The notes beneath the pieces are model-generated. The model was given only the letters and a program-made list of their open reading frames with translations, ran no database searches and was not told the origin of the DNA. This document shows positions 21,917 through 48,195 of a stretch of DNA of 64,000 nucleotides, in pieces. Position 1 is the first letter of the stretch, and every line of letters starts with the position of its first letter. Both the position numbers and the translations under genes were made by a program. The DNA is from a virus. Lineage: Duplodnaviria; Caudoviricetes. The stretch spans positions 36,956 to 100,955 of IMG/VR virus record IMGVR_UViG_3300029305_002015. The stretch is one strand, 5' to 3'.

Positions 21917-23821
21917 TTATACATAAGCTTCAACGGTTTCATTATGAGATTCATTGACATCACTGTCAAGGAAGATACACTGATTACCAGAGATCAGAAT
22001 CTTGATAAGTTCAGATGCTACAGACAGAACCATTGCATCAGTCTCAGCAGAAGTAATGATATTCTCATTATACTCAAGAGTCTCAAGATCGAAAGTTTTA
22101 TTCTGCTGGATAGAACTATTAATGATCTCTGCACCCTTATCAATTGCAGCCTGTTCAAGAGCAGCTACTGCTTCAGGTTCATTGGAAGTATACTGCCAAC
22201 GATCAACGAGTTTGATCATACCCTGACCAGTTGCACCATGTAGAACCTGAGCATATACCATTCGAACTGCATCATAGATCATATCCAGAATACCATATCT
22301 GAGACGGATATCATTAGTAAGGCTCTTCATGTATTCATTCGGATTCTCGGTCTTCTCAGGAAGGATATCTCTCATTGCATCAATACATGCACGAGCAATT
22401 GTGATCTGACAACCAGGAACAACACCATACTTGATTGCAGAACGTACACACTTTATTACATCTTCAACGGAGTCCCAAATAATCTGTTTCTGAAGATCAC
22501 TATCTGCACCAATGTAATAGATGAAGTTCTTCATCTCTAACTGAAGTACACGAGCATTGGCTTCATAGATCTTGGAAGAATAAGACTGCTTCTCTGCATC
22601 AGTAGTAGCAGTAATCTGCTCAAGATCAGTACGAGCACGGCGAAGTGCATCCTGATATTTCTCATCAGATTCAATATCCTCAACACGGAAGATAGAACCT
22701 GTATTACAAGACAGAAGAGCTTCTGCTGCCTTACCAATTACTCGATGGAACTCATAACTGTTATTATTGAGAACATCTTCAACCCATGCGTCAACAGTAG
22801 CACGATCAAACTTTTCAATCATACCAGTATACAGTTCCTGAGTAATAACTTTAGCTCTGAGAATAGTAGCCAAGTCAACAAGCTGATTAGGCTCAAGTTT
22901 ACCCATTGCATACTGAGCCATAATGATATTAATTCCACCCTTATTTCTCATCTCATAAGTGAGATACTGATCAACAACAGTTTCACACATATAAGCATCA
23001 TAGAAAGGAGCAAGGATAAGAAGTTTACTACCCATGGCTCTCATACATTCATTGATAGGAATAATGAACTTGTTAAACATATCAGTTTCAACTTTGTGAT
23101 CAAAGATCATTACAAATACATTCTTCTCAGTAGCACTAAGATCCTGATTACGAACAAAAGCATCACTGATAAGATTGGCAGGGAAATCAAATCCATTGAT
23201 TGCAGATACATAAGACTTATTAGTAGGAGAATCCTTCATTTTAATGGAAGGAGATTTAGCATTCTTATAAGTCTCAGCAATAGCATGAGCAATCTCTTCA
23301 TTACCATTAGACGTTACATATGCAATATTATAAATGGAATCATAATCAGTAGGATCAATAGGTCTAGCAGCACTATGAACTCTATTCTTCAGATCCTCAA
23401 TAATTTCATCCCAAGCTCTATTGAACTGACGAGGAAGCCTATATAAAGTGTTAAAAGCAGCCTTACGGCTAATAACACCATTACCACCATTATATTGCTT
23501 GAATAAAGCATTGGTAAGGACGATAGCAGTAGTAGTACCATCACCTACGGTATTATTCATACGAATACAAGGTGCTTTGATAAGATTATATATCATCCTC
23601 TTATAACGGTTATGGAAACGATACTTCATTAAGATGGCATGTCCATCTTTCGTAGCCTCAGTCATCATACCATCAAGAATGGTAGCAGATGAACCTAGAG
23701 GTCCTAACGACTTGCTTAAATTATCGGAGATAACTCCAAATACCTCATTGATCAATCCCTCGAATTCTTCTTGAGGAATAATGTTGCAATGATTCTGATT
23801 AGAATAGTCTAAAAATCCCAT
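21917..23821 (-). CDS. groEL: Phage GroEL-like chaperonin
   Basis: 634 aa; SLGPLG, TKDG, GDGTTTA, EDVIKCVRSAIKYGVVPG equatorial-domain motifs. Confidence 0.9.
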   Translation of the reverse strand: MGFLDYSNQNHCNIIPQEEFEGLINEVFGVISDNLSKSLGPLGSSATILDGMMTEATKDGHAILMKYRFHNRYKRMIYNLIKAPCIRMNNTVGDGTTTAIVLTNALFKQYNGGNGVISRKAAFNTLYRLPRQFNRAWDEIIEDLKNRVHSAARPIDPTDYDSIYNIAYVTSNGNEEIAHAIAETYKNAKSPSIKMKDSPTNKSYVSAINGFDFPANLISDAFVRNQDLSATEKNVFVMIFDHKVETDMFNKFIIPINECMRAMGSKLLILAPFYDAYMCETVVDQYLTYEMRNKGGINIIMAQYAMGKLEPNQLVDLATILRAKVITQELYTGMIEKFDRATVDAWVEDVLNNNSYEFHRVIGKAAEALLSCNTGSIFRVEDIESDEKYQDALRRARTDLEQITATTDAEKQSYSSKIYEANARVLQLEMKNFIYYIGADSDLQKQIIWDSVEDVIKCVRSAIKYGVVPGCQITIARACIDAMRDILPEKTENPNEYMKSLTNDIRLRYGILDMIYDAVRMVYAQVLHGATGQGMIKLVDRWQYTSNEPEAVAALEQAAIDKGAEIINSSIQQNKTFDLETLEYNENIITSAETDAMVLSVASELIKILISGNQCIFLDSDVNESHNETVEAYV

Positions 23822-32889: not shown

Positions 32890-32900
32890 GGAGGTCAATG

Positions 32901-33122
32901 GTGGCTAAAGAAGATCTAATTGAGATGGAAGGTGCTGTAGTAGAAGCACTTCCTGGTGGAATGTTTGATATTCAAACAGATGATGGTAATAAAGTATTAG
33001 GTCATCTATCTGGTAAATTAAAGATGAACCATATCAGGGTCTTAGTTGGAGACCGAGTAACAATTTGTGTATCCCCATATGATACAAGTCGAGGCCGTAT
33101 CACATGGAGACATAAAAAATAA
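32901..33122 (+). CDS. infA: Translation initiation factor IF-1
   Basis: GTG at 32901 after AAGGAGG gives MAKEDLIEMEGAVVEALP...GHLSGKLKMNHIRVLVGDRVTICVSPYDTSRGRITWR. Confidence 0.95.
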   Translation: MAKEDLIEMEGAVVEALPGGMFDIQTDDGNKVLGHLSGKLKMNHIRVLVGDRVTICVSPYDTSRGRITWRHKK

Positions 33123-33627: not shown

Positions 33628-34602
33628 TTAGTCTTCTTTTTTACCGTCTTCTTCTTTCTTAACCTTAGCTTCTACTTCCTTACGGATAGCATCAATTTCT
33701 CTTGTAAGTTCAGCATTCATCTTACGGTCAATGAAGATGACAAAGGTGCGTCTAGTATTCTTTGTATCACCAGCAAGCTTAGACTTCATATTCTTGAAGT
33801 TAAATAACTGACCATAACCATAGCACTGATAGCACAGAATCTTATATTTACCAAGCTTATCAGCAAATTTCTCAGTCAGACGCTTACAGAAATCAGTGGC
33901 ATTCTGAGTCTCAATATCAAACATACCGATCATCTGCCAATAGAAGTTCTGACCAAATACTCTCATATTGAAACGAGACTTGAGACGATTCCACCAGCCC
34001 AGATCATAGAAATCAAGACCTTCTTTCTCAATCTCATCAACAACATCAGAACGTAGATCCTTAACCAGATCTCTAATCTTTTCTTTATCAGATCTATTAA
34101 CGGCCTCAAACATAGGACCAGAGATCATGGCTTCAACAAGAGCAGCCTCTTCGAAAGCTTCCTGCTGACGGATTAGAGAATCATCAATAACCTGAACATT
34201 CTCTAACATCTCCATCAGTTCATAACCTTCCTTGAAGCTCTTCTTCAGAGCAGCAAGAGCAGCATCATACTGGTCAGTAGTAAGAGTTACCTTATTGGGA
34301 ACAGGGATACTCTTATCATCATAAGGCTTAGCCTTAGGAGTCTCACTATCTCCACCAGGAATACTTACACTAGCAGCATCATAAGGCTTAGCCTTAGGAG
34401 TCTCACTATCTCCACCAGGTACAGGAATAGAAGTTTCCTTAGCACCAGTTGCATCCTTATCAAAATGCTCTTCAGGATGATTCGTATCGGGATTCTTATG
34501 AGCAAATTCAGCAGTTTCATTGATATTCATAGAGAGGATATCATTATCGCCCATATTATCAAAGTTCTCAAGATTAAATAGACCTTTACTCATTTCAAAC
34601 AT
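33628..34602 (-). CDS. Putative internal head protein with acidic propeptide
   Basis: 324 aa; acidic N-half with duplicated PGGDSETPKAKPYD; LVEA/MFEA candidate cleavage sites; basic C-half. Confidence 0.45.
   Translation of the reverse strand: MFEMSKGLFNLENFDNMGDNDILSMNINETAEFAHKNPDTNHPEEHFDKDATGAKETSIPVPGGDSETPKAKPYDAASVSIPGGDSETPKAKPYDDKSIPVPNKVTLTTDQYDAALAALKKSFKEGYELMEMLENVQVIDDSLIRQQEAFEEAALVEAMISGPMFEAVNRSDKEKIRDLVKDLRSDVVDEIEKEGLDFYDLGWWNRLKSRFNMRVFGQNFYWQMIGMFDIETQNATDFCKRLTEKFADKLGKYKILCYQCYGYGQLFNFKNMKSKLAGDTKNTRRTFVIFIDRKMNAELTREIDAIRKEVEAKVKKEEDGKKED
34317..34419. repeat. Identical 43-bp direct repeat, 60-bp period
   Basis: catcataaggcttagccttaggagtctcactatctccaccagg at 34317 and 34377. 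Confidence 0.95.
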
Positions 34603-34641
34603 CTCCTTTATTTATTATAAATTATTAACGTGTTTCCTTGA

Positions 34642-36159
34642 TTAACGTTCTGTAAATCCATAATCGATAGAAATCCACTTATCTCCACGTTTACCAACGT
34701 TTCCAGAGTGAATATCAGATATATTAACTGATAGACCTGTATCATGAACTACCTGATTCAAGTCCTGACGTAATTTATTAATTGCTGCGTTAACTTCAAA
34801 GCTATTTTTATCAAAGTTAGTATCAGCCTTTTCCATAGATATTACGCATTTGTTGGTAGTAGCTTCTTCAACCCTAGCAATTATATCTTCACGATTATGT
34901 TTCTTCAATGTGTTGTAAACCATTAACTCAGCATTGTTAGCACGTACACCGTATTGATTAATTGCGATCTTGGTTACAACATCTTTACCAGTTGGGAATA
35001 GAGCTAAACGACTTTGACCCATCTTAGGTCTCATTTGATTAGCATCTCCACGCATATCACTAGAGCATACAGCAAATGCGTTAAATGCAACATATTTAGA
35101 TGGAACATTACCTTTGATACAACCCTCAATGAATTTACTTAAAGTTTCATTATCATTGATAATGCCAACATATTTAGCATCAATCTCATGCATCTTGGTC
35201 ATTGATCCAGTAATCAAAGTTATTCCAAACTGAAGATGATATGCTAGTTCTGCTAACTTATTTAATGCTTTCAATACTAGGGGATTATTTCCACCAGGAA
35301 TACTTTCAGGATCATCATAGAAAGTAAAAGATTGATTGAATGCATTAAGTGTTTCATTAAATTGATTAATTTGGTTCATTGTCAAACCAAAAGAATTATG
35401 TACACTAATTCTACCAAATAGTGCTGTTGTAAATTTTTGAACATCATTTGAAAATGTGGTAGCATTAAATAATCCCTGTTCCCAACTTTTAGCATCTAGC
35501 TGCTTAATAATATTTGTAAATTGAGACATATAATCAGGATGATCGATTAAGAAATAAATCATTAATGCACCATCCCAAGCAGCTACAGGTTCACCATGTG
35601 CAGGAACGTAATCCTTTATATCAGGATTATTCCTATAATTAGGATTCTGTGCATGAGCTTCAGGGGATATTCTATTTGGATAAAAAACAATTTGATCATT
35701 CTCGATCTTACAGATAAGATCTTTATAGGCAAGTTCTATTGTATTAGCCGATGGAGGAACTGTGTTATCTGTCACCTCTGGATTAAACTCCAATTTGATG
35801 GATTTTGGTTTATCTTTACCTTCAGATTTAGGCTTACTCTTAGAAGCACTAGCAACAGCATCAGGAATTACTTCTTCCAGAATCTGATCAGCAGATTTTG
35901 ATTTTCTAGAAAATAATCTCTTTATGAATGAAGTAAAACGATTCCATTGTTTTACTAACCACTGCCAGAACCGTTTAATTAGAGCCCATAATTTAGAAAA
36001 GACATTCTTCTTTGTAACAGGATTAGTAGATGCTTCAGCTAAAAAAGAAGCCATGAAGTCATCGCCTTTTTCGAAATAGTTATCAAAGTAGACGTCATCT
36101 AGTAAATTAGATATAGGATCTAATGCAAACTGTTCTGTTATTGCATTAGCATATGACAT
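34642..36159 (-). CDS. Head-protein-like N-terminus fused to C-terminal protein-kinase-like domain
   Basis: 505 aa; FLAEA then KLWALIKRFWQWL amphipathic helix; C-terminal GQSR, VVTKIA, NNAE, DIHSGN, IDYG. Confidence 0.7.
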   Translation of the reverse strand: MSYANAITEQFALDPISNLLDDVYFDNYFEKGDDFMASFLAEASTNPVTKKNVFSKLWALIKRFWQWLVKQWNRFTSFIKRLFSRKSKSADQILEEVIPDAVASASKSKPKSEGKDKPKSIKLEFNPEVTDNTVPPSANTIELAYKDLICKIENDQIVFYPNRISPEAHAQNPNYRNNPDIKDYVPAHGEPVAAWDGALMIYFLIDHPDYMSQFTNIIKQLDAKSWEQGLFNATTFSNDVQKFTTALFGRISVHNSFGLTMNQINQFNETLNAFNQSFTFYDDPESIPGGNNPLVLKALNKLAELAYHLQFGITLITGSMTKMHEIDAKYVGIINDNETLSKFIEGCIKGNVPSKYVAFNAFAVCSSDMRGDANQMRPKMGQSRLALFPTGKDVVTKIAINQYGVRANNAELMVYNTLKKHNREDIIARVEEATTNKCVISMEKADTNFDKNSFEVNAAINKLRQDLNQVVHDTGLSVNISDIHSGNVGKRGDKWISIDYGFTER

Positions 36160-36185
36160 TTATGTACATCTCCTTTCTTTAATAA

Positions 36186-36223
36186 AAAAATGAACCCCCT
36201 TAACAATTAGGGGGTTCATTTTT
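36186..36223 (-). terminator. Intrinsic terminator
   Basis: aaaaatgaaccccct-N7-agggggttcattttt. Confidence 0.75.
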
Positions 36224-36224
36224 A

Positions 36225-36497
36225 TCACTTGTTGAGTTCATCAACAAGCGACTGCCATTCTTTTTCTGCTAGGGGTGTGAAAATTCTTAATTGTGTTTTT
36301 AGATCTCTCATCATCTCACAGAGGATGCCATATTCATATATTTGTTTCATTGTTGGCATCTCCTCAGATGGATTATCAGGTGTTTTGCGTAATGCTTCAA
36401 TGTCTTCTTCAGTATACTTATAAGTCCATTTCTGACTATCACCAGTAACATATTTAGATCCATCAGGTTTAGGAATACGAGGTAATTTACGACTCAT
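36225..36497 (-). CDS. Hypothetical protein
   Basis: ATG (MSRKLP) at 36497 after AGGAG (track starts at 36521). Confidence 0.6.
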   Translation of the reverse strand: MSRKLPRIPKPDGSKYVTGDSQKWTYKYTEEDIEALRKTPDNPSEEMPTMKQIYEYGILCEMMRDLKTQLRIFTPLAEKEWQSLVDELNK

Positions 36498-36513
36498 AGT
36501 AGATTCTCCTAAA

Positions 36514-37230
36514 TTAATCAACGTAGAATTCCTTCATGTCATCCAACCTGATACAAGCAAGGCGCCCACCTTCAACATCGCTAAACTGATAGGCTGCTCC
36601 GCAATCAATACCAATAATATTACCCTTATGATAAATTTCCATTGGTACCTTTCCAGTTAGATTACATGTAGGAGTATGTCCAAAGATCGTTATGAAGTTA
36701 TCAATCTCAGAAAATACATGGATAAGCTCTCTTTCCCATACAGAGAAATATGCTCTAGATTCGCCCATGAGTTGATCTTCAAGTGCATCATACAACTCAC
36801 AAGGAACTGCATGAACCAACTTAAAGTTCTTACCATTGACTTCAAGATCATACTTAAGAGGGAGATCATTTAGATATTTCTTAATCTCCTTCTTCTCCTC
36901 AGATGAAAGTTTATTCCATGCCTGGAAAGTTATTCTACCCCCATTCATAAACCATTGTTTCTTCAGCTCATAGTTCGGTAAACCAGCTGTACATCCTTCA
37001 GGTTCATACGGAAATCCAAGTGCATCCATCATCATATACTCATGATTACCAAGAAGCATATGGACATTCTCCATCTTAATGATTCTCTGGAGAAGTTCGA
37101 TTCCATAAGGATTCCTATCAACTATATCACCCAGGATGAACAGTTCGTCGCTATCAGAAAAATTGATCTTCTTAAGCATACTATCAAAAGCTTTCTTATT
37201 GCCGTGAATATCAGACATAACATAAATCAT
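36514..37230 (-). CDS. Ser/Thr protein phosphatase (PPP family, lambda NinI-like)
   Basis: SDIHG, LGDIVDR, LGNHE, W-x-x-NGG, VHA, FGHTP, IDCG motifs; ATG at 37230 after AAAGGAG. Confidence 0.92.
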   Translation of the reverse strand: MIYVMSDIHGNKKAFDSMLKKINFSDSDELFILGDIVDRNPYGIELLQRIIKMENVHMLLGNHEYMMMDALGFPYEPEGCTAGLPNYELKKQWFMNGGRITFQAWNKLSSEEKKEIKKYLNDLPLKYDLEVNGKNFKLVHAVPCELYDALEDQLMGESRAYFSVWERELIHVFSEIDNFITIFGHTPTCNLTGKVPMEIYHKGNIIGIDCGAAYQFSDVEGGRLACIRLDDMKEFYVD

Positions 37231-37255
37231 ACTTCTCATCTCCTTTCTTACTAAT

Positions 37256-37265
37256 ATAATATATA
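37256..37265 (-). promoter_or_regulatory. Putative early promoter motif
   Basis: TATATATTAT on the minus strand about 25 bp upstream of the phosphatase. Confidence 0.5.
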
Positions 37266-37322
37266 TTTAGCAAGAAATGAGATACTATAAGTATTATTTG
37301 TGTATGTTTGGAGTATCATTGA

Positions 37323-38783
37323 TTATATATTCCATCGTCTACCAACATAACTTCGGTTGATTGCAGCATAGTCAACAGCCACATATTCATCCTTACCATT
37401 ATTATGTCTAATACCAATATTCTTATGATGGATATCTTGTGTTACATTAACAGGAATACTATGTTTCTGCATAATATTCTCAATATGAGATCTTACCCGA
37501 AAAACGATATGCATAGGAGCATCTTCTTTAGTATCAACTCGTTCAACTGTACTAACACAGCCATTTTCACTAACATTAATGACTCTAGCCAGTATACTTG
37601 CATCACCAGTTTCATCAAACTTCTGATAAATATTATACTCAGACATATTAGAGTTAATACCCCATTGAGATAATGCAAGTTTATAAACAATCTCTTCATT
37701 AGGCGGGAAGAATACAACACGAGATTGACCCCAAACAGGTTTAAATGCATCACCATCACCCTTAAGATTTTTTGTAGACACTAAGTAACTGTTGAAAGAT
37801 AAATACTTAGCAGGGAACTTAGCTTGAATACACTTCTCTACAAATTTACTTAAAGTTTCAGGATCATCAATAGTTTCACAGTAAGAAGGATCAATTGTGT
37901 AAACTTCTTTAATTGCTTTGGTGATAAGATTCATACCCATCTGGATTGTAGTCATTGTACCAGAAAAAGCATTGATAACACTTATATCTCCGCTGAATTT
38001 AACATATGGATTGGAAACACCTTCAATTGCTTTCAGGATATCATTGATTACACCTTGGGTATCCATTAACTGTCTAAGTGTAATATTATGAGGAGATTTG
38101 ATATAACCTTGATCATTAGCACCATCTTGAATGAGTCTACAGAAATTGTTTACATCATTTAGGGTACTACGTTCAATATGATCTGCATTAATAGCTCTAG
38201 CAATATCATAACCCATATTCTTTAAGACGTTATTCTTATCTTCAATTAACTTGAGGGTATATAAGAAGCAACGTATATCAGGGCCAGGATCATTACCAGG
38301 CATCTTACCCTGTGCACGCTTAAGTAGATTTGCCCAAATAATCTTATTGGTAGTAATGGTAATAGTTTCACCATCTTCCTCAAACTTTAAAAACATCGGT
38401 TTCAACATTAACTCGATTTCTTCAGAGCCAATATTGATTTCGGATTTATCACTTGCAGGAATGTGAACTTTACCTTCCTTGATGTCTTTTCTAGAAACAA
38501 CACCAAGTTCAAGTAAGATCTGTTCAGTACTCTTGGTCTTTTTCTTAAACAGAGACTTGATAACATTGATAAGATTACCTAGAGCTTTCCAGATCCACCT
38601 AAATACTTTCTTTAATAGTTCCCATAGACGAGTAAGGACATTACTCTTTGTTACAACTCCATCAGATGCTTCTTTGATAACATCTTCATAGAATTTGAAT
38701 CCATCATCGAATACACTAAAGTCTGTCTCTAGATATTCTTCTAATGGATTCAGTTGGAATTTCTCCATTAATAACGCATCCAT
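37323..38783 (-). CDS. Head-protein-like N-terminus fused to protein-kinase-like domain (paralog of 34642-36159)
   Basis: 486 aa; VIKEA then RLWELLKKVFRWIW; GQSR, IVYKLA, NMSE, DIHHKN, VDYA; shared ETLSKFxExCI block. Confidence 0.7.
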   Translation of the reverse strand: MDALLMEKFQLNPLEEYLETDFSVFDDGFKFYEDVIKEASDGVVTKSNVLTRLWELLKKVFRWIWKALGNLINVIKSLFKKKTKSTEQILLELGVVSRKDIKEGKVHIPASDKSEINIGSEEIELMLKPMFLKFEEDGETITITTNKIIWANLLKRAQGKMPGNDPGPDIRCFLYTLKLIEDKNNVLKNMGYDIARAINADHIERSTLNDVNNFCRLIQDGANDQGYIKSPHNITLRQLMDTQGVINDILKAIEGVSNPYVKFSGDISVINAFSGTMTTIQMGMNLITKAIKEVYTIDPSYCETIDDPETLSKFVEKCIQAKFPAKYLSFNSYLVSTKNLKGDGDAFKPVWGQSRVVFFPPNEEIVYKLALSQWGINSNMSEYNIYQKFDETGDASILARVINVSENGCVSTVERVDTKEDAPMHIVFRVRSHIENIMQKHSIPVNVTQDIHHKNIGIRHNNGKDEYVAVDYAAINRSYVGRRWNI

Positions 38784-38807
38784 TCTTACTATCTCCTTTC
38801 AAAAATA

Positions 38808-40130
38808 TTATTCAAGATTATATAGATCTTTAATTAGATTATTCACATAATCATGAGATACAGTTACAATCAGTCGATATGTTCTACGAGGGTTTGGAGA
38901 TAGTAGAATCAATTCCCTATTCGTCCAATCTATATAGAATAATTCATTATCGAGGATTTCCCCGTTTTCTCTGAATTGAACTTTAATAAATCTTTCCATA
39001 GGAATTCCAAACTTCAAATGGTGATCTATTACTAATCTTAATGATTGATTTAGGATACTATCAATTGAAATACTATTTTCACCTTGCTTTAGTTTAAAGA
39101 TAGGCCAGCTAAGAATAGTCCATCCAACCGGTAAATCAAAATCATTAAGATTAATAGTATCGGAAAAGATTGGAACAATAGTTTGATCTTCCTTAGTAGG
39201 AACGTGAATTTGTTTCTTCATGTCAGGACTATTGAGAGTTAAATACCCAATAGTATTAAATTCACATCTGACTGAGAAGGTGATTTCATAACCTCTTCTA
39301 ATCTGTCCATCTTTGACACCAGGTCCAGCTTGAGGAACTTGAAATACAGTATCAATATCAGCGATGTAGTACATGAAGAATTCATCAGAATTAGAGCCAC
39401 CCTTGAGTTTATATGTAATAGGATAATGCCAGATACTATTCATATATGTCAAGAATTTATATACAGATTCATCTTCATCATGTACATTTACTTTAGCAAC
39501 ATTACCAAGTAAGCTACAAAACTCTCCAGGCAGATATAACTCTAGAGGTGCACGGACAAACTGATTATGCCCAACAGGAATCATATTATGGATATAAGAC
39601 ATATAATTTACTTGCTCAGCAAATGTGTTAAATGTCATAATCACATCAATATACATTACTGCTCGATTATAATGACCATGGATATAGATACTTTTTCTAG
39701 GATCTTCAGCTAATGGTAGTAGAGAACCATCTCCATAGAATGCATGAGTATTAGTAAACCTAGCATTCATTTGAGTATTAGCTAAGAATCTATCATCATC
39801 TTGACCAAACATAATTCTAGGAACAAGTACCATGATTGGAAGTTCCTTTTTCTGCAACTGTTTAGGTAGATGAGTAACTTGTCTACTAGCAAGAGTAGTA
39901 CTAGCAGTTACAGTCTTAAATAAATCAGGAGGGAATATATCTAAGATATATTTCTCAATTACAGACATTACATTTCCATATGTATGGGATGCTGAAGTAT
40001 TACATATTGCTCCAGTATTTTTAATGTGGTCACCATATTCAGCACCAACATTTCGTTCATATTGTACACCCTGAACATTGATATCTGGATTAGATATCGA
40101 TGGATTATAATTACCGATCATTCTATTCAC
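38808..40130 (-). CDS. Putative virion structural protein (neck/tail-completion region)
   Basis: 440 aa, GTG start; among structural genes; no diagnostic motif. Confidence 0.4.
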   Translation of the reverse strand: MNRMIGNYNPSISNPDINVQGVQYERNVGAEYGDHIKNTGAICNTSASHTYGNVMSVIEKYILDIFPPDLFKTVTASTTLASRQVTHLPKQLQKKELPIMVLVPRIMFGQDDDRFLANTQMNARFTNTHAFYGDGSLLPLAEDPRKSIYIHGHYNRAVMYIDVIMTFNTFAEQVNYMSYIHNMIPVGHNQFVRAPLELYLPGEFCSLLGNVAKVNVHDEDESVYKFLTYMNSIWHYPITYKLKGGSNSDEFFMYYIADIDTVFQVPQAGPGVKDGQIRRGYEITFSVRCEFNTIGYLTLNSPDMKKQIHVPTKEDQTIVPIFSDTINLNDFDLPVGWTILSWPIFKLKQGENSISIDSILNQSLRLVIDHHLKFGIPMERFIKVQFRENGEILDNELFYIDWTNRELILLSPNPRRTYRLIVTVSHDYVNNLIKDLYNLE

Positions 40131-40171
40131 CTTCTTTCTGTTATTAGGATGTAATTTACCTTTACGTAAAT

Positions 40172-40200
40172 ATGAGGAGGGATATAATATCCCTCCTCAT
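40172..40200. terminator. Hairpin
   Basis: atgaggagggatat-a-atatccctcctcat. Confidence 0.55.
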
Positions 40201-40225
40201 TATATCAAGATGTTATTAGTAAATG

Positions 40226-40262
40226 AAGTGGTGGGATGCCGACCGGATCATCCCACCACTTT
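40226..40262 (-). terminator. Hairpin, putative terminator
   Basis: aagtggtgggatg-N11-catcccaccactt. Confidence 0.6.
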
Positions 40263-40268
40263 CCTATA

Positions 40269-40664
40269 TTAAGATATAATCCCCATGCGCTTAAAGAAGA
40301 TATCAATCAGTTCTTTGAGAGAATTCGCATTGTATATCTTAATAATAGGCTGATGGAATTCAGTAATGTTTCTCATACCATTCAATCGTAGAAGGGCCAA
40401 CCATAATTCAGTGGTGCCATAGAGTTCATAACTAACCGATTTTGGTTTGTAGAACATTGACTGAGGAACGTTGTAATACTGGACAATCTGGTCCAGTTCC
40501 TGTTTATAATTAACGAAAAAATCACTAATTGGTATTTTAAAGATGTGATCAGGATTATTCACATCTCCCACCAATAGTGTTTCATAGAAGTTCCTTAATG
40601 ATATGGTCTCTTTCTTTCCATCAGCTATGTATTTATCGATATACGTGATGTCTGGTAATGCCAT
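40269..40664 (-). CDS. Baseplate wedge protein (T4 gp53/LysM-like)
   Basis: YKPKSVSYELYGTTELWLALLRLN matches the gp53-like RPDxISYxLYGxxxxWWxILxxN pattern. Confidence 0.7.
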   Translation of the reverse strand: MALPDITYIDKYIADGKKETISLRNFYETLLVGDVNNPDHIFKIPISDFFVNYKQELDQIVQYYNVPQSMFYKPKSVSYELYGTTELWLALLRLNGMRNITEFHQPIIKIYNANSLKELIDIFFKRMGIIS

Positions 40665-41104
40665 TAGTACTTCTCACCTCCACCAGGAAGAGCAGTATTT
40701 TCATTAGCATTCCTATTGTAACCTCTAATTGCATCTTCCGTACCAAATACTCGATAAGATTCATTAGGATCACCATTACGACAAATAAGAAGAAACTGTC
40801 GACCCATAACAGTTTGATTCTCAGCATCATAATATTCCAATGGAGCTCTACCGATGAATTTAGTAGTAAGAAAATTCTGGCATTCAATTGTACATTCCAA
40901 ACAAAGCTTAGTATCTTCATCATTTAAAAATATAGATGAATCAATTTCTCTTGGTTGTACACATGCTTCTTCAAATGGAACATTAGGCATTAGAGAAGTT
41001 GAATGAATTTTATATACACCAACATCTGTGAATCTATAGTCTTGAGCCGATCTACATACACTCTCTTCAACTACTCGCTCTACATTGTATGTACCATTAA
41101 TCAT
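40664..41104 (-). CDS. Hypothetical protein (probably baseplate-associated)
   Basis: 146 aa; TAATG-coupled to the gp53-like gene. Confidence 0.55.
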   Translation of the reverse strand: MINGTYNVERVVEESVCRSAQDYRFTDVGVYKIHSTSLMPNVPFEEACVQPREIDSSIFLNDEDTKLCLECTIECQNFLTTKFIGRAPLEYYDAENQTVMGRQFLLICRNGDPNESYRVFGTEDAIRGYNRNANENTALPGGGEKY

Positions 41105-41166
41105 ACTACTCTCACCTCCTTTTATAAAATATTATACTTTTATATGATACGGTTCAATAATAAGAA

Positions 41167-41202
41167 AAATATATGGAGGGGTTTGAACCCCTCCATATAT
41201 TT
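41167..41202 (-). terminator. Intrinsic terminator
   Basis: aaatatatggaggggtt-tg-aacccctccatatattt. Confidence 0.75.
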
Positions 41203-41212
41203 CATTATTTAA

Positions 41213-42307
41213 TTATTCCTCAGCCTTAGGCTCAGATTTAGGCTCAGATTTGGGATCCTCTTCCTTCTTACCAGCACCCATAAGCTCATTGAAAGGCTTA
41301 GTTAATGCAATAAGAATATCCTTGCGGTAATTGTATACATAGTTGTACATGCTCATGGTATTAGCACAGACTACCAGCAATCTGTTATAAAGCTTCATAG
41401 CAGCAGGACCATTGTAGTTAGTTACAGCCTGACCCTCAGTCTCAGCCATACCTTTCAGCTTCTGCTCAACCTGCTTCAGCCGTTCAGTAACTTCCTTAAT
41501 GGTAGTATCAGATAGATCAAGAGTGATGGAACCCTTTGCAATATCTTTATTAATCATAGTCTCAAGACGACTGATGTATCTATTCTCGGTACCATCAGAA
41601 ACAGTCTGGCTATTATCACGACCAAAACTGAAAGTATTCATGGTCTCAGAGAATTTCTTAGCATCAATTACCTCAGGATACTTGTTAGTACCATTCTTAG
41701 GTAACAGCTTTACACTAACTGCATTCTTACTGAAAGCAGCCTTGAGCTTATTCTTGGTATTCTTATCTTTGATACCATTAATAAGAACATTCCAATCAGG
41801 ATCTACATCAGCATTGCTAGGAGCAGAGATCTCATAACCATCATCGATGTATTTCTGAGGCCAAGCATTCTTGATTGCACTAGCAAGCTTCTCCTCACCC
41901 ATCTCATCAATGGATTTGATCTTACCCTTATACTTAGCTTCAAACTTATCAAGGTTGGCAGCACGACGACGCAGATTTTCAAAGATTCGTACAAAGAAAC
42001 GACCAACGTTTCTCAGAGCTTCCATAATCTTGTTCCAAGCTTTCTTCAGGAAACCTTCCTTCTTAGAAGCGGCTGCACTAGCAACATCCTTAGCAGTCTC
42101 TTCATCAGTAGCTTCGATGAAATAGCTCTCATCAAACTCAGTATACTGCTCACGGATCTCAGCCATGTTTTCTACCATAAACTGCTGAGATTCAGCATAC
42201 TGGGTCATTAGTTCGATCTCATAGCACTCTTTCATCATCTCAAAATGTTCTTTAGAGTGAGCAAAATTCTCATACTCTAAAATTAGTTCTCCATACGTTT
42301 TAGCCAT
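41213..42307 (-). CDS. Putative internal head protein
   Basis: ATG (MAKTYG) at 42307 after AAGGAGG; acidic propeptide, YFIEA, then GFLKKAWNKIMEALRNVGRFFVRIF helix. Confidence 0.55.
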   Translation of the reverse strand: MAKTYGELILEYENFAHSKEHFEMMKECYEIELMTQYAESQQFMVENMAEIREQYTEFDESYFIEATDEETAKDVASAAASKKEGFLKKAWNKIMEALRNVGRFFVRIFENLRRRAANLDKFEAKYKGKIKSIDEMGEEKLASAIKNAWPQKYIDDGYEISAPSNADVDPDWNVLINGIKDKNTKNKLKAAFSKNAVSVKLLPKNGTNKYPEVIDAKKFSETMNTFSFGRDNSQTVSDGTENRYISRLETMINKDIAKGSITLDLSDTTIKEVTERLKQVEQKLKGMAETEGQAVTNYNGPAAMKLYNRLLVVCANTMSMYNYVYNYRKDILIALTKPFNELMGAGKKEEDPKSEPKSEPKAEE

Positions 42308-42377
42308 TGTGGAATCCTCCTTCAATTATAAAATAATATTTGTAGTATGGGTATTTACTGCTTATTGATTAGTCATG

Positions 42378-43052
42378 TTAATGTTGAGTTTCAGGTAGTA
42401 GATCATTTGCAGCATCACGAGCAACAGAACTGTTGTTAGTAGTAGCAACCTTAACTAAGAACTTCTGAGCTAAAGCTTGAGCTTCATCATAATGATCCTT
42501 CTGAATCTCTAACTTCATTTTATTCTTAATAACAGCTGCCTTTTTATACATCTGATACTTTTCAGTATCTTTCTGACGAGCAATAAGAAGAGCACATACA
42601 GAAATTAACTGAGCCATCCGAGTCTTATTATCAAAACTGATAATATTACGCTCCATTAGTACAGATGCTTCAGAAAATGCTTCATTGATCTGATCTGCAA
42701 TACTTCCTTCAAAACCCTGCATAACAAGAATAGGAGTAAAGATCTGATTGAGTTCATTCAATAGAGAATCTTCATCCATACTATTATTAGGATTTACAGG
42801 AGCAGCAATAGCATCAGTGCCAGCAGTTTCAATGCTATCCTGAATTTCATCCATACTTTCAAGCATTTGAGTCCATCCCATTAAGTGCCCCTTCATAGGA
42901 CCAGTAGGATTAGTACCAGCAGTAGGGGCATTATGAGCAATATCCTTGACTGCTTCACCATCACTATCAATGGTCTTTTTATATTGAGCCTGTAGTTTAT
43001 GGAAATGGGAGTTCATCTTATCCTCATCAACAGGACGATTTACATTTGCCAT
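42378..43052 (-). CDS. Putative head protein
   Basis: 224 aa; acidic N-part with MLES/FSEA sites, basic helical C-part; next to the probable portal. Confidence 0.45.
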   Translation of the reverse strand: MANVNRPVDEDKMNSHFHKLQAQYKKTIDSDGEAVKDIAHNAPTAGTNPTGPMKGHLMGWTQMLESMDEIQDSIETAGTDAIAAPVNPNNSMDEDSLLNELNQIFTPILVMQGFEGSIADQINEAFSEASVLMERNIISFDNKTRMAQLISVCALLIARQKDTEKYQMYKKAAVIKNKMKLEIQKDHYDEAQALAQKFLVKVATTNNSSVARDAANDLLPETQH

Positions 43053-43103
43053 TTAAGTCTCACTCCTTTATCAATTATTTTAAACCCATTTTATCTGAAT
43101 AGA

Positions 43104-45437
43104 TTAAGAATTAGTTTCTTTATCTTGTTCAACTTCAGCAAGATCTTGTTTATCAATGGCAAGTTTAGATACATCATCCTGAAGTTTAGAATCAGTAGCC
43201 TGAATATCTACTCGCTTAATTAGTTCTTCTAAACTATCAAAGTCAAGTTGAGGTAAATATTCTTTGGCTAACTCTTTACGCAGGAAAATCTGTTTATCTG
43301 TGGCATTACCATTCTCATCTTCCATTTCAGATTTCTTGTAGAAAATGGACATAACTAATTCAACCAACGCATTGAAATTAGTAATCATTTCAGATGTAAT
43401 GGATAGATCTTGTTGCTTAATAGCATTAAACTTAAATAGGAAAGATTGAATTATATCATCTTCCATATCAGTACAATGCTTGAGCAACATTCTGTAGAGT
43501 TTAGTTAAACCCTTATTGAAATCAATCTTATAAGAAGAAACTGTAGATAAGAATCGAGCATTAGCCAACTCAAGAGTCTTAGCAAAATCAGCTTCATCAA
43601 TAGCATTAATCATCATCAGATGAGGAACGCCAGTACCACTAATTGCTTGACGCCTTTGCTGCTCTAGGAATTCCATATTAATAGGATTCTCAACTGCAGC
43701 AATTGTATCAGTTTCTAATGCACGATAATCATTACGACCAGCAGGAAGAACCATCTCTCCCATACCACCGACTTTATTTAATACACCTGAATAGGAATAG
43801 ATATCATCGATGGTAATTCTTCTGGATTGGAACTTACGCATAGTACGTTGAATCTGAGCAGCATAGTCCTTATTCAATCCAGATGATTTCAGATAATGAA
43901 CTCGAGTTGTATTATTATTTAATGTATAAAGCATGTTATACATTGTGAGCATGAGATACATACGAGCAGGGAACATAGTAGGTTCAATTACAGAATGACC
44001 CCTACCCTCTTCATCCTCATTAATAACAAAACGAACTACTTCATTCTCAGGAATATAGATAAATGAGAGTTTGCCTTCTGAGAACTTATGAGCCATGATT
44101 ACTTCAGCAATTTCACTCTTTAACTTAATATTCTTTTCAAGCATTTTCTTATCAAAAGACTTGATAATCATATTAGCTAGAGTATCCACCATATTCTTAT
44201 CTCTAGTATAGTTCTGGAAAGATAAATCAACCATACCATTAGGATTAGCAGCATTCGCTTGAAGATCCATAGTAGTTGATACATAATAGTATCCAATAAC
44301 TCGTCTATCCATACGAATAGGTACTAGACGTAAACCATCGAGATACTTTAAATAACAACCTTTGATATGGCTGAAATCTTTAATGTTATCAACAACATCT
44401 TGATCAATGTCAGCAAATACACTGCTAGAGATTTTATTATAGTTAAGAGTCTCACTGAAGTGTTCAATCTTTTCACCAGATTTGGATTTACTCTGAGATG
44501 AGGCATACTCATGTAATACGAAACTCTTAAATGCTTCTGCTCCCATTTCAGATAACATTACAGAAGATCCATTGTATACATCAATATTTCTCAGTAGAGA
44601 TCCAATTCCATCATGGTTAACTTTCTCAGGAACTACTTTTACAGAAGGATCTTTTTCAATTTGATATGTATCAGACATATCATTTTTAACTCCAGTTGAA
44701 GCAGATTCCATTAAAGTTTTAACATTTTCTTCACTATACAAAGACTTACCTTCAGTAAAGCTTTCATAAACTTCAGTAGGAACACTTTCCTTGAAACCTT
44801 TACTGATATGGAATCCTTTCCCATCCCCATATTTACTATCATGAATAGATTCAAGTTCAGCAAATAATTTTGAATATGGGACAACTTGAATTGTATGCTC
44901 ACCAATAGTAAGAGTATTAGGAACAATGAAGTTTTTGATAGCCATTAATAGATCATATCTATTTTCGATTTCCCTAACTTGAGATTCTAATGCTTCATTA
45001 TCCTGATGATTCTCAAAGATAATAGATCTAGATACTTCACCAGTTGAAACATTACTCTCAATAATAGAATCTCGAATTACATAGATAACATCTCGCATTT
45101 CTGGCATCTGCGTACAGATATTGCTCATATCTCTACGCATCAAAAGTTCACTATGATTCAACGTATCTACGGTCACATAATCTGATCTAATATTATTGAG
45201 AACATTCTTGACCATATCCTTATCTTTCTTATCGGACAACTCAAGATCTCTCATACGTTTGATGAAGCCATCATCATCGAATGCTGTTGAGTTAAAAGCT
45301 TTTAGAGCGGTATCTAAAGTTTTATCAAAAGATGTTGATATAAGATCAAGCTCATCTTCATGCATATTACCAACATCATCAGCAATACTTAATGCCAGCT
45401 TATCAATAATTTCTCTTGTTTGAGTTTTATTAGGCAT
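43104..45437 (-). CDS. Portal protein (jumbo-phage/T4 gp20-like)
   Basis: 777 aa; QMPEMRDVIYVIRDSII and FLEQQRRQAISGTGVP resemble portal motifs; head-gene context. Confidence 0.6.
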   Translation of the reverse strand: MPNKTQTREIIDKLALSIADDVGNMHEDELDLISTSFDKTLDTALKAFNSTAFDDDGFIKRMRDLELSDKKDKDMVKNVLNNIRSDYVTVDTLNHSELLMRRDMSNICTQMPEMRDVIYVIRDSIIESNVSTGEVSRSIIFENHQDNEALESQVREIENRYDLLMAIKNFIVPNTLTIGEHTIQVVPYSKLFAELESIHDSKYGDGKGFHISKGFKESVPTEVYESFTEGKSLYSEENVKTLMESASTGVKNDMSDTYQIEKDPSVKVVPEKVNHDGIGSLLRNIDVYNGSSVMLSEMGAEAFKSFVLHEYASSQSKSKSGEKIEHFSETLNYNKISSSVFADIDQDVVDNIKDFSHIKGCYLKYLDGLRLVPIRMDRRVIGYYYVSTTMDLQANAANPNGMVDLSFQNYTRDKNMVDTLANMIIKSFDKKMLEKNIKLKSEIAEVIMAHKFSEGKLSFIYIPENEVVRFVINEDEEGRGHSVIEPTMFPARMYLMLTMYNMLYTLNNNTTRVHYLKSSGLNKDYAAQIQRTMRKFQSRRITIDDIYSYSGVLNKVGGMGEMVLPAGRNDYRALETDTIAAVENPINMEFLEQQRRQAISGTGVPHLMMINAIDEADFAKTLELANARFLSTVSSYKIDFNKGLTKLYRMLLKHCTDMEDDIIQSFLFKFNAIKQQDLSITSEMITNFNALVELVMSIFYKKSEMEDENGNATDKQIFLRKELAKEYLPQLDFDSLEELIKRVDIQATDSKLQDDVSKLAIDKQDLAEVEQDKETNS

Positions 45438-45508
45438 ATATAAACTGACTCCCTTCTATATTATTTAGAAACTTTAAAATACCGTATTTCAAAGTGCATG
45501 TTATTATA

Positions 45509-45540
45509 GGTGAGGAAGGACTCTATGGTCCTCCCTCACC
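45509..45540 (-). terminator. Hairpin, putative terminator
   Basis: ggtgaggaaggac-N6-gtcctccctcacc (imperfect). Confidence 0.5.
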
Positions 45541-45551
45541 GTTGAATGTTT

Positions 45552-46514
45552 TTAGATAGCACTCATAACGGCTCTCTTAGCATCTTCAAGGCTCTTAGTG
45601 ATACTACTTAATTTTTTCATCAACTCTTCTTTAGCATTATCACTATTGCCATCATACGCAGGGGAATCAGCTTCAGCCACTTTGTCTTTTACAGCAGCAG
45701 TTACAGCATTATCACTTGAACCTTCTTCCTCAGCAGGAGGAGTATCTTCTACAGGAGCAGGTTCTTCAGTTCCACCTTCAGCAGGTGCTTCTTCTGCAGG
45801 AGGTGTATCAGTACCAGCATCCCCACCATCTAATGAAATTGCTTCACTTAGCATATCATCAGAATCAAATTCAGCATTTTCTACAGGAGCAGTAGGTTCT
45901 GCACCAACAGGTTCAGAATTAATGGGTTCAGTTTCTTCACCACCGAAACCACTATCAATACGCTGAGAAGTTACATCTTCATCTCCACTAATTACATCAC
46001 CTGCATTATTGGGAGGAACAGGTAGAACATCTTTAGGAGTATTAGAACCTAAATCAAGTTCCATACTCAAGATACCATCATCAGCAACAGGTTCACCTGT
46101 TACATTACTAACAGGCTCAGGTAAAGAATCATCACCAGGTAAAGGTATAGGATTCTCTTCACCACCACCTACAACAGGCTCAGCAAGTTCAGAATCATCA
46201 ATAGGTTCATTTGTCATATCATCATTGACAGGTTCAGGAGATGCAGGTTCATCTACATCAACAGGTTGATCCATTACATCATCATCTTGATTATTATCAT
46301 CTTCTTTAGGATTCTCATCTTCCTTAGGCTCTTCAGGCTCATTATCATTTTCGATAACGGGCGACTCTTCAGGAGCTACATCTCCTTCTTCACCAAGAAC
46401 AATGAGATCATCTAAGCTACTTCCCATACCGTCTTCAAGAATAATCTCAGCGGCTTCCAGGAAATCTTTTTTCTGATTAATAATACCTTTAATAGTATTA
46501 AGCATATACATCAA
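45552..46514 (-). CDS. Highly acidic, Pro-rich protein (putative scaffold/core)
   Basis: 320 aa D/E/P-rich with a C-terminal coiled coil; MLSEA site; upstream of the portal. Confidence 0.45.
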   Translation of the reverse strand: MMYMLNTIKGIINQKKDFLEAAEIILEDGMGSSLDDLIVLGEEGDVAPEESPVIENDNEPEEPKEDENPKEDDNNQDDDVMDQPVDVDEPASPEPVNDDMTNEPIDDSELAEPVVGGGEENPIPLPGDDSLPEPVSNVTGEPVADDGILSMELDLGSNTPKDVLPVPPNNAGDVISGDEDVTSQRIDSGFGGEETEPINSEPVGAEPTAPVENAEFDSDDMLSEAISLDGGDAGTDTPPAEEAPAEGGTEEPAPVEDTPPAEEEGSSDNAVTAAVKDKVAEADSPAYDGNSDNAKEELMKKLSSITKSLEDAKRAVMSAI

Positions 46515-46724: not shown

Positions 46725-46871
46725 ATGATTAGTCCTAAAGATCTGGAAAAGTTAGATACTCCAGAAGGTCGTAAACAGTTACCTCCTGAATTCGTAGAAG
46801 AATTCGCAAATGGTAAAGGTGACGATGATGATGACAAAGTAAAGAAAGGAGGAACTAAAAAGAATGGCTAA
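46725..46871 (+). CDS. Small acidic protein overlapping the endolysin start (not in ORF track)
   Basis: AAGGAGG RBS; MISPKDLEKLDTPEGRKQLPPEFVEEFANGKGDDDDDKVKKGGTKKNG* (48 aa). Confidence 0.65.
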   Translation: MISPKDLEKLDTPEGRKQLPPEFVEEFANGKGDDDDDKVKKGGTKKNG

Positions 46872-48195
46872 GTTCTCTAATAGCCCATTAGTAGTTTATA
46901 CTAAATTAAGTCCTAACCATAGTGGTCAACGTACAAAGGCTATTGATACTATTGCAATTCACTGTATGGCTGGTAACTGTACAATTGAAACCTGTGGTGA
47001 AATCTTTGCTCCTAAGAGTCGTCAAGCTTCTTCTCAATATGGTATTGGTAGTGATGGTCGTATTGGTATGTATGTTGAGGAGAAGAATCGGTCTTGGTGC
47101 ACAAGCAGTGCTGCAGTAGATCAACGTGCTATCACCATTGAGGTTGCTAACACTAAGGCAGCTCATCCTTGGCCTATCAGTGATAAAGCTTATGCTTCTC
47201 TTGTAAAGCTTTGTATTGATATTTGTCAGCGTAATAACATCAAGAAGCTTCTATGGTTAGGCAACAAGGCTTATATGGGTGATGTTTCTAAACAGAACAT
47301 GGTTGTTCACCGTTGGACTGCTAATAAAGCTTGTCCTGGTGATGATCTGTATAACCTTCACTCTAAGATTGTATCTGAAGTTAACGCTGCTCTTAGCAAG
47401 ACTTCTACCTCTACTGGTACTACTATTCCTACTGTAACTAAACCTACTCAAGCTACCAATGTTATTTCTGGTACTCCTGAAAAGATTATTTGGAACTTTT
47501 TCAAGAATAAAGGTCTCAATGACTATGCTGTTGCTGGTATCATGGGTAACCTTTATGCAGAATCTGGTTTATCTTCCATTAATCTTCAGAATACCTTTGA
47601 AAAGAAACTTGGTAGTGATGATGAATACACTAAGAAAGTTGACAGTGGAAAGTACACTAACTTCGTTCGTGACGGTGCAGGTTACGGTATTGCACAATGG
47701 ACCTACTGGTCGCGTAAGGAAGGTCTCTTGAACTATGCTAAGAAGTGTGGTAAATCCATTGGTGATCTCACCATGCAGTGTGAGTATCTATGGACAGAGC
47801 TCAATCAATCTCCTTTCAAGACTAAGGTTCTTGCAGTACTTCAAAAAGCTACTTCTGTACAGCAGGCATCTGATGTATTCCTCATGGAATTTGAGAAACC
47901 TGCTAACTCTGCATCTCATAAGGCTAAGCGTCTGACCTATTCCAATGACTTTTATAAGAAGAACGCCAAAGGTGATAAAGCTAATACTTTACCTTATCTC
48001 GTTAAGGTAAATGATGCTACTGTTCTTAACATCCGTAAGGGTGCTGGTACTAACTTCAAAGTAGTTGGTTCTATTAAGGATAATGGTATCTATACTATCG
48101 TCCAGGAAGCAGTTGGTCAGGGCGCTAAGAAATGGGGTAAACTGAAATCTGGTGCTGGTTGGATCAGCCTAGACTATTGTATCAAACTGTCTTAA
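46864..48195 (+). CDS. Endolysin: amidase_2 + phage tail lysozyme + SH3b
   Basis: SPNHSGQR..IDTIAIHC, ITIEVAN, VHRWTANKACPG; AGIMGNLYAESG, GYGIAQWT; LNIRKGAGT...WGKLKSGAGWISL. Confidence 0.92.
   Translation: MAKFSNSPLVVYTKLSPNHSGQRTKAIDTIAIHCMAGNCTIETCGEIFAPKSRQASSQYGIGSDGRIGMYVEEKNRSWCTSSAAVDQRAITIEVANTKAAHPWPISDKAYASLVKLCIDICQRNNIKKLLWLGNKAYMGDVSKQNMVVHRWTANKACPGDDLYNLHSKIVSEVNAALSKTSTSTGTTIPTVTKPTQATNVISGTPEKIIWNFFKNKGLNDYAVAGIMGNLYAESGLSSINLQNTFEKKLGSDDEYTKKVDSGKYTNFVRDGAGYGIAQWTYWSRKEGLLNYAKKCGKSIGDLTMQCEYLWTELNQSPFKTKVLAVLQKATSVQQASDVFLMEFEKPANSASHKAKRLTYSNDFYKKNAKGDKANTLPYLVKVNDATVLNIRKGAGTNFKVVGSIKDNGIYTIVQEAVGQGAKKWGKLKSGAGWISLDYCIKLS

Follow-up and report, generated by a model that had tools for sequence, protein, structure and literature searches.

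The stretch of 64,000 nucleotides analysed here (hereafter the window) covers bases 36956-100955 of the 101-kb IMG/VR contig IMGVR_UViG_3300029305_002015, which is estimated to be only 37% complete and is, therefore, a fragment of a jumbo phage genome. Two paralogous genes in it, K1 and K2, code for proteins that end in a kinase-like domain, and a gene for a phosphatase lies between them. The question raised by this locus is whether the two proteins are kinases that travel in the phage head and reach the host together with the DNA, and whether the phosphatase is an early-expressed switch that turns them off, as was proposed in an initial annotation made from the sequence. The answer favoured here, with somewhat more confidence than doubt, is that K1 and K2 are members of a large family of proteins, so far without annotation, from the structural modules of jumbo phages, and that they are probably minimal kinases that are packed in the capsid and ejected from it.

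K1 and K2 align from end to end (28% identity, E 2e-57), which agrees with the paralogy first noted at this locus. Both are predicted to consist of a leader of approximately 42 residues, a helical domain of approximately 290 residues and a minimal kinase-like domain at the C-terminus. The domain studied corresponds to the last 172 residues of K1. It is larger than the 125-135 residues originally given because it includes three N-terminal helices, whereas the placing of its end a few residues after the equivalent of the DFG motif was correct. Modelled by AlphaFold2 with the family alignment, the domain reaches a pLDDT of 97.4 and a pTM of 0.91. When this model is searched against the PDB with Foldseek, all of the matches listed are protein kinases, the smallest atypical ones at the top, with Rio2 as the best one (1.5e-4) and PRPK/Bud32 and the C-terminal domain of MSK1 also present (probability 1.00 for these three), in line with the kinase assignment of the initial annotation. 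The independent VIA-align search, run all-against-representatives, gives a kinase-like protein in 49 of the 50 rows listed (Z 7.5-9.2), the exception being SAICAR synthetase; these rows include aminoglycoside phosphotransferases, YabT, RIO, Bud32 and the archaeal RNA kinase Ark1 (173 aa). The matches in BFVD are small phage kinases and kinases of giant viruses.

At the level of sequence, a hidden Markov model (HMM) built from the domain only aligns CK2alpha from the beta3 lysine to the DFG equivalent with an E of ~0.05, and the other matches listed are kinases, apart from designer pentatricopeptide-repeat (PPR) proteins at the top of the PDB list. The latter are an artefact in which nine weak repeats are summed, each with an independent E of ~900. 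They arise because a hairpin at K1 residues ~343-364 (window 35060-35130), F-V-x-x-C-I-x-x-G-I-P-P-K-Y-I-A-Y-N-T-W-L, resembles the PPR consensus. No Pfam family was matched by the K1 and K2 domain sequences at E<=10, a phmmer search of the PDB with the single sequence of the kinase domain gave nothing useful, and the sole match of the K1 domain in the PHROG scan is phrog_4301, of unknown function (1.4e-8).

The modelled domain has the N-lobe of the protein kinase-like (PKL) superfamily, that is, a five-stranded sheet with helix C, and after this N-lobe come helix E and then the catalytic and Mg-binding loops. The PKL catalytic set is present in full (the Lys of beta3, the Glu of helix C, the catalytic pair of Asp and Asn in D-x4-N, and the DFG Asp), and the spacing from N487 to D499 is 12 residues. 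The C-lobe is missing, given that the protein ends 3-6 residues after D-Y-G and has neither an activation segment nor helices F-I. The assignment of the C-terminal domains of K1 and K2 to a kinase fold with intact catalytic residues and without a C-lobe is solid, and the active site looks intact.

When the 172 C-terminal residues of K1 were compared by phmmer with 1.84 billion representatives of clusters (at 50% identity), 250 proteins were recovered at E<=1e-3, of which 174 reached E<=1e-10, and none of these clusters, at least 250 in number, is annotated; searches for homologous proteins gave 1 and 5 matches, none bearing a name. Most members have 450-580 aa with the kinase domain at the extreme C-terminus, and nearly all end 3-10 residues past D-Y-G. 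In the family alignments G381, R384, K397 and D499 (K1 numbering) are invariant, and at least 90% of the members share Q382, P389, A399, G404, N408, E411, D482, N487 and Y500. G381 and R384 belong to the GQSR turn, K397 to V-x-K-[IV]-A, E411 to helix C, D482 and N487 to D-x-H-x-x-N, and D499 to D-Y-G. The motifs on which the kinase claim had been based (GQSR, VxK, the helix-C Glu, DIHSGN/DIHHKN and IDYG/VDYA) are, thus, the most conserved columns of the family, which may serve as a natural example of a small kinase core of approximately 125 residues, from the Gly-loop to D-Y-G. In one subgroup, the catalytic loop reads D-F-N-D-G-N and the His is missing. Each genome carries from one to at least three kinase paralogs, usually as adjacent genes, and the ancestral arrangement is a plain tandem array of two or three. 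On a short contig (L005, 1326-2944), two neighbouring open reading frames (ORFs) in different frames code separately for the N-terminal part (370 aa) and for the kinase domain (167 aa), which is either a split form or a frameshift.

A fold of this kind does not by itself point to a protein substrate, and the domain might instead act on RNA, a nucleotide signal, a lipid or a small molecule, an alternative that we consider unlikely. It is favoured by the structural neighbours, among which two aminoglycoside phosphotransferases reach Z 9.0 and 8.8, YihE is also found, and Ark1, an RNA kinase of similar size, has Z 8.2 and an rmsd of 2.6 over 112 residues, and also by the end of the domain right after D-Y-G, where the lobe for a protein substrate is missing. 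Nonetheless, the Z-scores of protein and small-molecule kinases are tied, so that the fold search does not discriminate between them. The catalytic loop is near that of T7 kinase, which acts on proteins with a short C-terminal part (PMC13645617), and the Kinase-PolyVal domains, also without a C-lobe, are predicted to act on proteins (PMC5512222). The best structural matches, Bud32/PRPK, RIO1/2 and Ark1, share with K1 a small core without activation loop and, as in RIO, N-terminal helices on the N-lobe; they differ in keeping at least part of the C-lobe (helix F onward), and the sequence identity is 8-16%.

Two known groups of phage kinases are closer in kind. Kinase-PolyVal, described in 2017, comprises monophyletic kinase domains of the Ser/Thr/Tyr-kinase superfamily, found in polyvalent proteins of phages, plasmids and conjugative elements, that have lost the entire C-terminal subdomain and have kept the active site, with its residues for ATP binding and phosphotransfer; they are carried by phages of Bacteroidetes and Verrucomicrobia, exist also in stand-alone form, and were predicted to be injected and to act on proteins in the manner of T7 kinase (PMC5512222). 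The K1/K2 family resembles them in lacking the C-terminal kinase subdomain while retaining the catalytic residues. The HMM of Kinase-PolyVal (PF18762), however, matched neither the K1 and K2 domains (E<=10) nor any of 83 family members (E<=0.01), and a six-frame search of the contig gave none; one neighbour cluster of the K1 domain in the ESM Atlas carries PF18762 (score 0.92). The carriers differ as well, given that Kinase-PolyVal is found in giant multi-enzyme polyvalent proteins, while K1 and K2 are single-enzyme proteins of approximately 500 aa, arranged in tandem, with an N-terminus like that of the phiKZ internal proteins.

T7 kinase (gp0.7, PHROG 2828), a small enzyme with a kinase fold, is hyperpromiscuous, broadly disarms bacterial defences and has distant homologs in jumbo phages (PMC13645617). 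Its kinase domain (residues 1-242, with DPV at 213-215) ends soon after the DFG equivalent, and this provides a precedent for the suggestion, made in the initial annotation, that the truncated C-lobe goes together with promiscuity (PMC13645617). The catalytic loops are alike, F-D-M-H-S-G-N-I in T7 and S-D-I-H-S-G-N-V in K1, and in one ESM Atlas cluster neighbouring the K1 domain 23% of the members carry a T7-kinase Pfam family. T7 kinase differs in being an early product that is made after entry and is not part of the virion, in having D-P-V in place of D-Y-G/A, and in its C-terminal DNA-binding shut-off domain. K1 has no match to PHROG 2828 and no significant similarity to T7 kinase over the full length, and hhalign covers only 14 columns with 8% probability. 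Injected kinases without a C-lobe were, therefore, already predicted in 2017, and the anti-defence action of T7 kinase was already known; what is new here is the type of carrier and the unannotated family.

The case for a place inside the capsid comes from the N-terminal part and from the gene context. Sites processed by prohead proteases of the T4 type follow the pattern hydrophobic-x-Glu, cut before a small residue. With the slash marking the presumed cut, sites of this type are found in K1 (F-L-A-E/A), in K2 (V-I-K-E/A) and in a 370-aa paralog encoded nearby (Y-F-I-E/A). In the family alignment the site, at K1 residues 40-43, has a hydrophobic residue at P3 (I/Y/F/L/V), a variable P2, Glu at P1 in 104 of 119 sequences and A, S or G at P1' in 98 of 119; it is preceded by an E-x-F-x-L-D-P motif, and an amphipathic helix starts directly after it. 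K1 matches PF12699, the internal head proteins of phiKZ, with an E of 2.3e-4 and 20.9 bits against a cut-off of 27, over residues 49-108 only, and nine of 83 family members also match this family weakly. The family profile aligns with one helix of gp65 of phage Goslar (E 5.6e-4), and hhalign gives weak matches to phiKZ gp93 (E 0.009) and gp95 (E 0.044). The head-protein signature that had been noted at the N-terminus is, therefore, real, but its match to known families is weak and, for PF12699, below the cut-off. Proteins of PF12699 number from dozens to thousands of copies in each virion, and many of them are injected, while Goslar gp65 is part of a vertex-binding complex at the capsid's inner surface (bioRxiv 10.64898/2026.04.21.720040). 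With these proteins and phiKZ gp86, the K1/K2 family shares the amphipathic K...IKK helix, the tandem paralogs of 370-550 aa in a structural module and a probable propeptide. No description of a PF12699-type head protein with a fused kinase domain was found in the open-access literature.

K1, K2 and the phosphatase gene are all inside a minus-strand gene block at 33628-46514, in which several genes match PHROGs of virion structural proteins (those for proteins of 777 and 224 aa) and one weakly matches the baseplate wedge protein gp53. K1 and K2 have the same orientation as the structural genes and are tightly packed among them. The 777-aa structural protein does not match the major capsid protein of phiKZ, and the phage is not close to phiKZ. 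The cleavage-type site, the helix and the structural-module context fit proteins that would be internal to the capsid and processed, which makes the packaging proposed in the initial annotation plausible rather than proven. Virion delivery of K1 and K2 is the best-supported reading of these features, and one to which we give a modest preference.

That the two proteins are late cytoplasmic kinases, outside the virion, which merely sit in the structural module, appears very improbable. The case for packaging is built on weak sequence similarity and on context, and the K1 ortholog of the sister phage, which has a stop codon in its leader, may start downstream of it; on the other hand, the family has kept both the cleavage-type site and the leader motif, a PF12699-like helix is present, and the genes are co-oriented with the structural genes and tightly packed among them.

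Another alternative is that K1 and K2 are fixed parts of the capsid that are not ejected, located at the inner surface or bound to the vertex, with the kinase acting on phage proteins during head assembly, or contributing no more than structure or ATP binding. Goslar gp65, which among solved structures matches the N-terminal part best, belongs to just such a complex. The AlphaFold2 model of full-length K1 (pLDDT 84, pTM 0.85) is, moreover, one compact unit. In fold searches with this model only residues 333-505 were matched, the N-terminal ~330 residues having no confident structural match. We regard a fixed part as quite unlikely, given that the gp65 match is weak and limited to one helix, that the conservation of the catalytic residues across 250 clusters argues for catalysis, and that the proteins diverge fast and are present in one to three or more copies per genome, as cargo would be. 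In comparison with the sister phage (contigs L003 and L004, the nearest relatives), the structural neighbours are 52-70% identical, K1 41% and K2 33%, while among the genes that flank the kinase block the 370-aa protein is 22% and a 324-aa protein (33628-34602, minus strand) 31% identical. Fast divergence together with variation in copy number is more typical of cargo that interacts with the host than of fixed architecture. The two flanking proteins are possibly further capsid cargo; the N-terminal region of the 324-aa one is acidic and contains a SIPVPGGDSETPKAKPYD segment in duplicate.

Returning to virion delivery of active kinases, several observations weigh against it or limit the case for it. 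The similarities to PF12699 and gp65 are weak and confined to approximately 50 residues. A search for a prohead protease (PF03420), made without positive control, detected none in this contig, which is 37% complete, or in five relatives. No homolog in a cultured phage was detected when the block (by megablast) and K1 (by tblastn) were compared with 50,697 phage records. The domain has no substrate-binding lobe, so that a protein substrate is an assumption. A few members, on contigs L012 (10001-10504) and L022 (10001-10513), have S-Q-H-I-G-N in place of D-x-H-x-x-N and have, thus, lost the catalytic Asp; members of this kind, or with a variant catalytic loop, may be pseudokinases or variant paralogs. 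Finally, the K1 ortholog of the sister phage (L004 8984-9100; L003 is identical) is interrupted in frame by a TAA at codon 20 of the leader (9041-9043), which is unexpected if the leader acts as a loading signal. This TAA sits within an inverted repeat of 13 bp without mismatches (9029-9041 / 9044-9056), and beyond it the frame stays open up to an ATG at 9098, only 7 codons before the conserved Glu/Ala site. Two different metagenomes have the same leader sequence with this TAA. Either a nonsense mutation followed by a downstream restart or a regulatory hairpin could account for it.

In T4, Alt and IPI-III are loaded into the head by means of a capsid targeting sequence, cleaved by gp21 at L/I-x-E and injected with the DNA, and they modify the host at time zero. 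K1 and K2 resemble these effectors in having an N-terminal leader that ends at a hydrophobic-x-Glu site of the T4 (L/I)-x-E type, a likeness known from sequence alone, and differ in the longer leader (~42 aa in K1, with E-x-F-x-L-D-P), which is unrelated in sequence, and in the activity, phosphorylation being expected in place of ADP-ribosylation. What is established here is the kinase fold with its conserved catalytic residues, the paralogy of K1 and K2, the size of their family, its tandem arrays and the location of the genes in a structural module; beyond this, we infer a route of prohead loading, trimming, ejection and phosphorylation of the host. K1 and K2 would be loaded into the prohead, where the prohead protease would trim the leader; they would then be ejected together with the DNA, and would phosphorylate host (or phage) proteins with broad specificity before the phage genes are expressed. 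Their action would be like that of T7 kinase and their delivery like that of T4 Alt. T7 kinase needs transcription and translation first, whereas a kinase delivered by the capsid would act at time zero, when the phage is most exposed. If this holds, these phages would follow the strategy of T7 kinase with an enzyme that the virion brings along, and the family, with its at least 250 clusters, provides concrete candidates for testing pre-packaged phage kinases. It would also tie the predicted injected kinases without C-lobe (PMC5512222) to a scaffold in the style of the phiKZ internal head proteins.

The phosphatase gene codes for a protein that matches phrog_246 (NinI-like, 6.3e-47), PF00149 (7.6e-14, 53 bits against a cut-off of 21.5) and, over residues 5-192, the lambda phosphatase 1g5b (2.5e-8). 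The Metallophos motifs SDIHG, GDIVDR and GNHE are read in its sequence, and correspond to the D-x-H, GDxxDR and GNHE of lambda phosphatase/NinI, PrpA and PrpB. The N-terminal motifs match ApaH too, and the scores are well below the NCBIfam equivalog cut-offs for PrpA/PrpB and for ApaH. The protein is, as judged by these matches, a PPP phosphatase of the lambda type, and its ApaH-like motifs mean that the substrate could be a nucleotide. Its sequence begins directly with the catalytic motif and has no leader, and it would, therefore, be made inside the cell. The small gene that overlaps its end has no match in Pfam, PHROG or NCBIfam.

Upstream of the phosphatase, TATATATTAT is found at 37256-37265, 17-26 nt before the ATG. 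The 10-nt core TATATATT[AC]T is modestly enriched in the 101-kb contig, with nine copies against 4.2 +/- 2.1 expected, and six of the nine are upstream of non-structural or unidentified genes, including a polymerase-like operon; the exact 17-nt promoter motif is no more frequent than chance would predict (3 matches, with 2.4 expected). On the other side, the terminator has a G+C-rich stem of 10 bp, a loop of 8 nt and a run of seven T. It leaves no room for a separate K1 promoter before the K1 start, 25 nt further on, and K1 would, therefore, be reached by read-through from upstream; the arrangement would fit a cassette that is insulated from a late operon. The sister contig L004 keeps a similar AT-rich motif upstream of the phosphatase, and has a hairpin and a T-run downstream of it, directly followed by the ribosome-binding site of the K1 ortholog. 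The phosphatase and the small gene make up a separate cassette, which has a promoter-like motif and a terminator of its own. The separate unit that had been described between the kinases was found in all its parts (motif, PPP phosphatase, small gene and terminator), and the layout of the cassette is kept in the sister phage.

Whether this unit is the off switch of the kinases was evaluated from the linkage in 22 distinct contigs, namely L003 and L004, 8 further IMG/VR contigs and 12 further metagenome contigs, with flanks of up to 10 kb around the kinase genes searched for the phosphatase. The order K2-like, phosphatase, K1-like is kept only in L003 and L004, where the phosphatase is 52% identical to that of the window and the small gene is absent. 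No ORF in the flanks of the other 20, more distant, contigs codes for a phosphatase homolog, and none is found anywhere in four larger related records, two of which are estimated to be 100% complete. The Metallophos proteins of ~240 aa in these four records have the motifs TDWH, GDLVDGE and GNND, belong to a non-PPP family and are mostly encoded far from the kinase genes. Given that the linkage is gone beyond L003 and L004, the cassette is an insertion, in the lineage of the window only, into a pre-existing tandem kinase array.

It is, therefore, improbable that the packaged kinases and the phosphatase form one on/off module in which the early-made phosphatase would reset the marks or protect phage proteins. 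Such a module would agree with the order kept in the sister phage, together with a 52% identical phosphatase, and with a promoter-like motif that genes from outside the structural module have too, along with the terminator that insulates K1. PPP enzymes of the lambda type, moreover, dephosphorylate Ser, Thr and Tyr broadly. The absence of the phosphatase from the 20 other contigs and from the larger records speaks against it, as do the fact that NinI-like phosphatases (phrog_246) are common stand-alone phage genes and the ApaH-like motifs, with which the substrate could be a nucleotide. The phosphatase could reverse marks set by the kinases, but it is not their conserved partner. The off switch of the initial annotation does not hold as a conserved system, and this negative result matters, since what looked like a kinase-phosphatase switch is a local gene insertion. 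A wider proposal is that a clade of gut and rumen jumbo phages preloads its capsids with one to several rapidly diversifying, hyperpromiscuous proenzyme kinases without C-lobe, which would be trimmed by the head protease, ejected and would disable the defence and expression machinery of the host through mass phosphorylation before phage transcription, the phosphatase later erasing their marks in the lineage of the window. In this full form the proposal is tentative and rather doubtful.

The positions of the features are collected in Table 1.

Table 1. Features of the kinase-phosphatase block, with positions in the window.
Feature	Position	Strand	Basis
K1, 505 aa: propeptide-like leader, helical domain and C-terminal minimal kinase	34642..36159	-	ORF, paralog of K2
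K2, 486 aa: K1-like architecture; catalytic loop DIHHKN, D-Y-A	37323..38783	-	ORF, paralog of K1; kinase HMM 6e-61
Kinase domain of K1 (residues 334-505), with three helices before the N-lobe, then helix E, catalytic loop and D-Y-G; without C-lobe	34645..35160	-	AlphaFold2, fold searches, conserved residues
K2 kinase domain	37326..37871	-	35% identity to K1 domain; motifs align
K1 residues 1-42: candidate propeptide, E-x-F-x-L-D-P motif, ends F-L-A-E/A	36034..36159	-	Family alignment; cleavage predicted
K1 residues 49-108: amphipathic K-x-N...K-x-W-x-x-I-K-K helix	35836..36015	-	Weak matches to PF12699, Goslar gp65, phiKZ gp93
370-aa protein: N-terminal signature (Y-F-I-E/A, then amphipathic helix), without kinase domain	41213..42325	-	N-terminal family HMM, E 7.6e-4
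Phosphatase, lambda-type (NinI-like) PPP, 241 aa, without N-terminal leader	36514..37239	-	phrog_246, PF00149, 1g5b
Small gene, 98 aa from TTG 36521 or 90 aa from ATG 36497; overlaps the end of the phosphatase gene	36225..36521	-	ORF
AT-rich promoter-like motif TATATATTATATTAGTA, upstream of phosphatase	37249..37265	-	Sequence read; similar motif in L004
Intrinsic terminator at the end of the phosphatase cassette; the start codon of K1 follows after 25 nt	36184..36218	-	Sequence read and hairpin scan

On the plus strand, the structural block is adjoined by a DNA-polymerase-like gene and by a gene for a 74-aa homolog of translation initiation factor IF-1 (32898-33122; PF01176, E 1.4e-21). Further away, a GroEL-like chaperonin gene is found on the minus strand at 21917-23821 (phrog_5725, 4e-67). 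A 443-aa protein encoded on the plus strand at 46864-48195 combines Amidase_2, a phage tail lysozyme domain and SH3_3, and is likely an endolysin or a tail-associated lysin.

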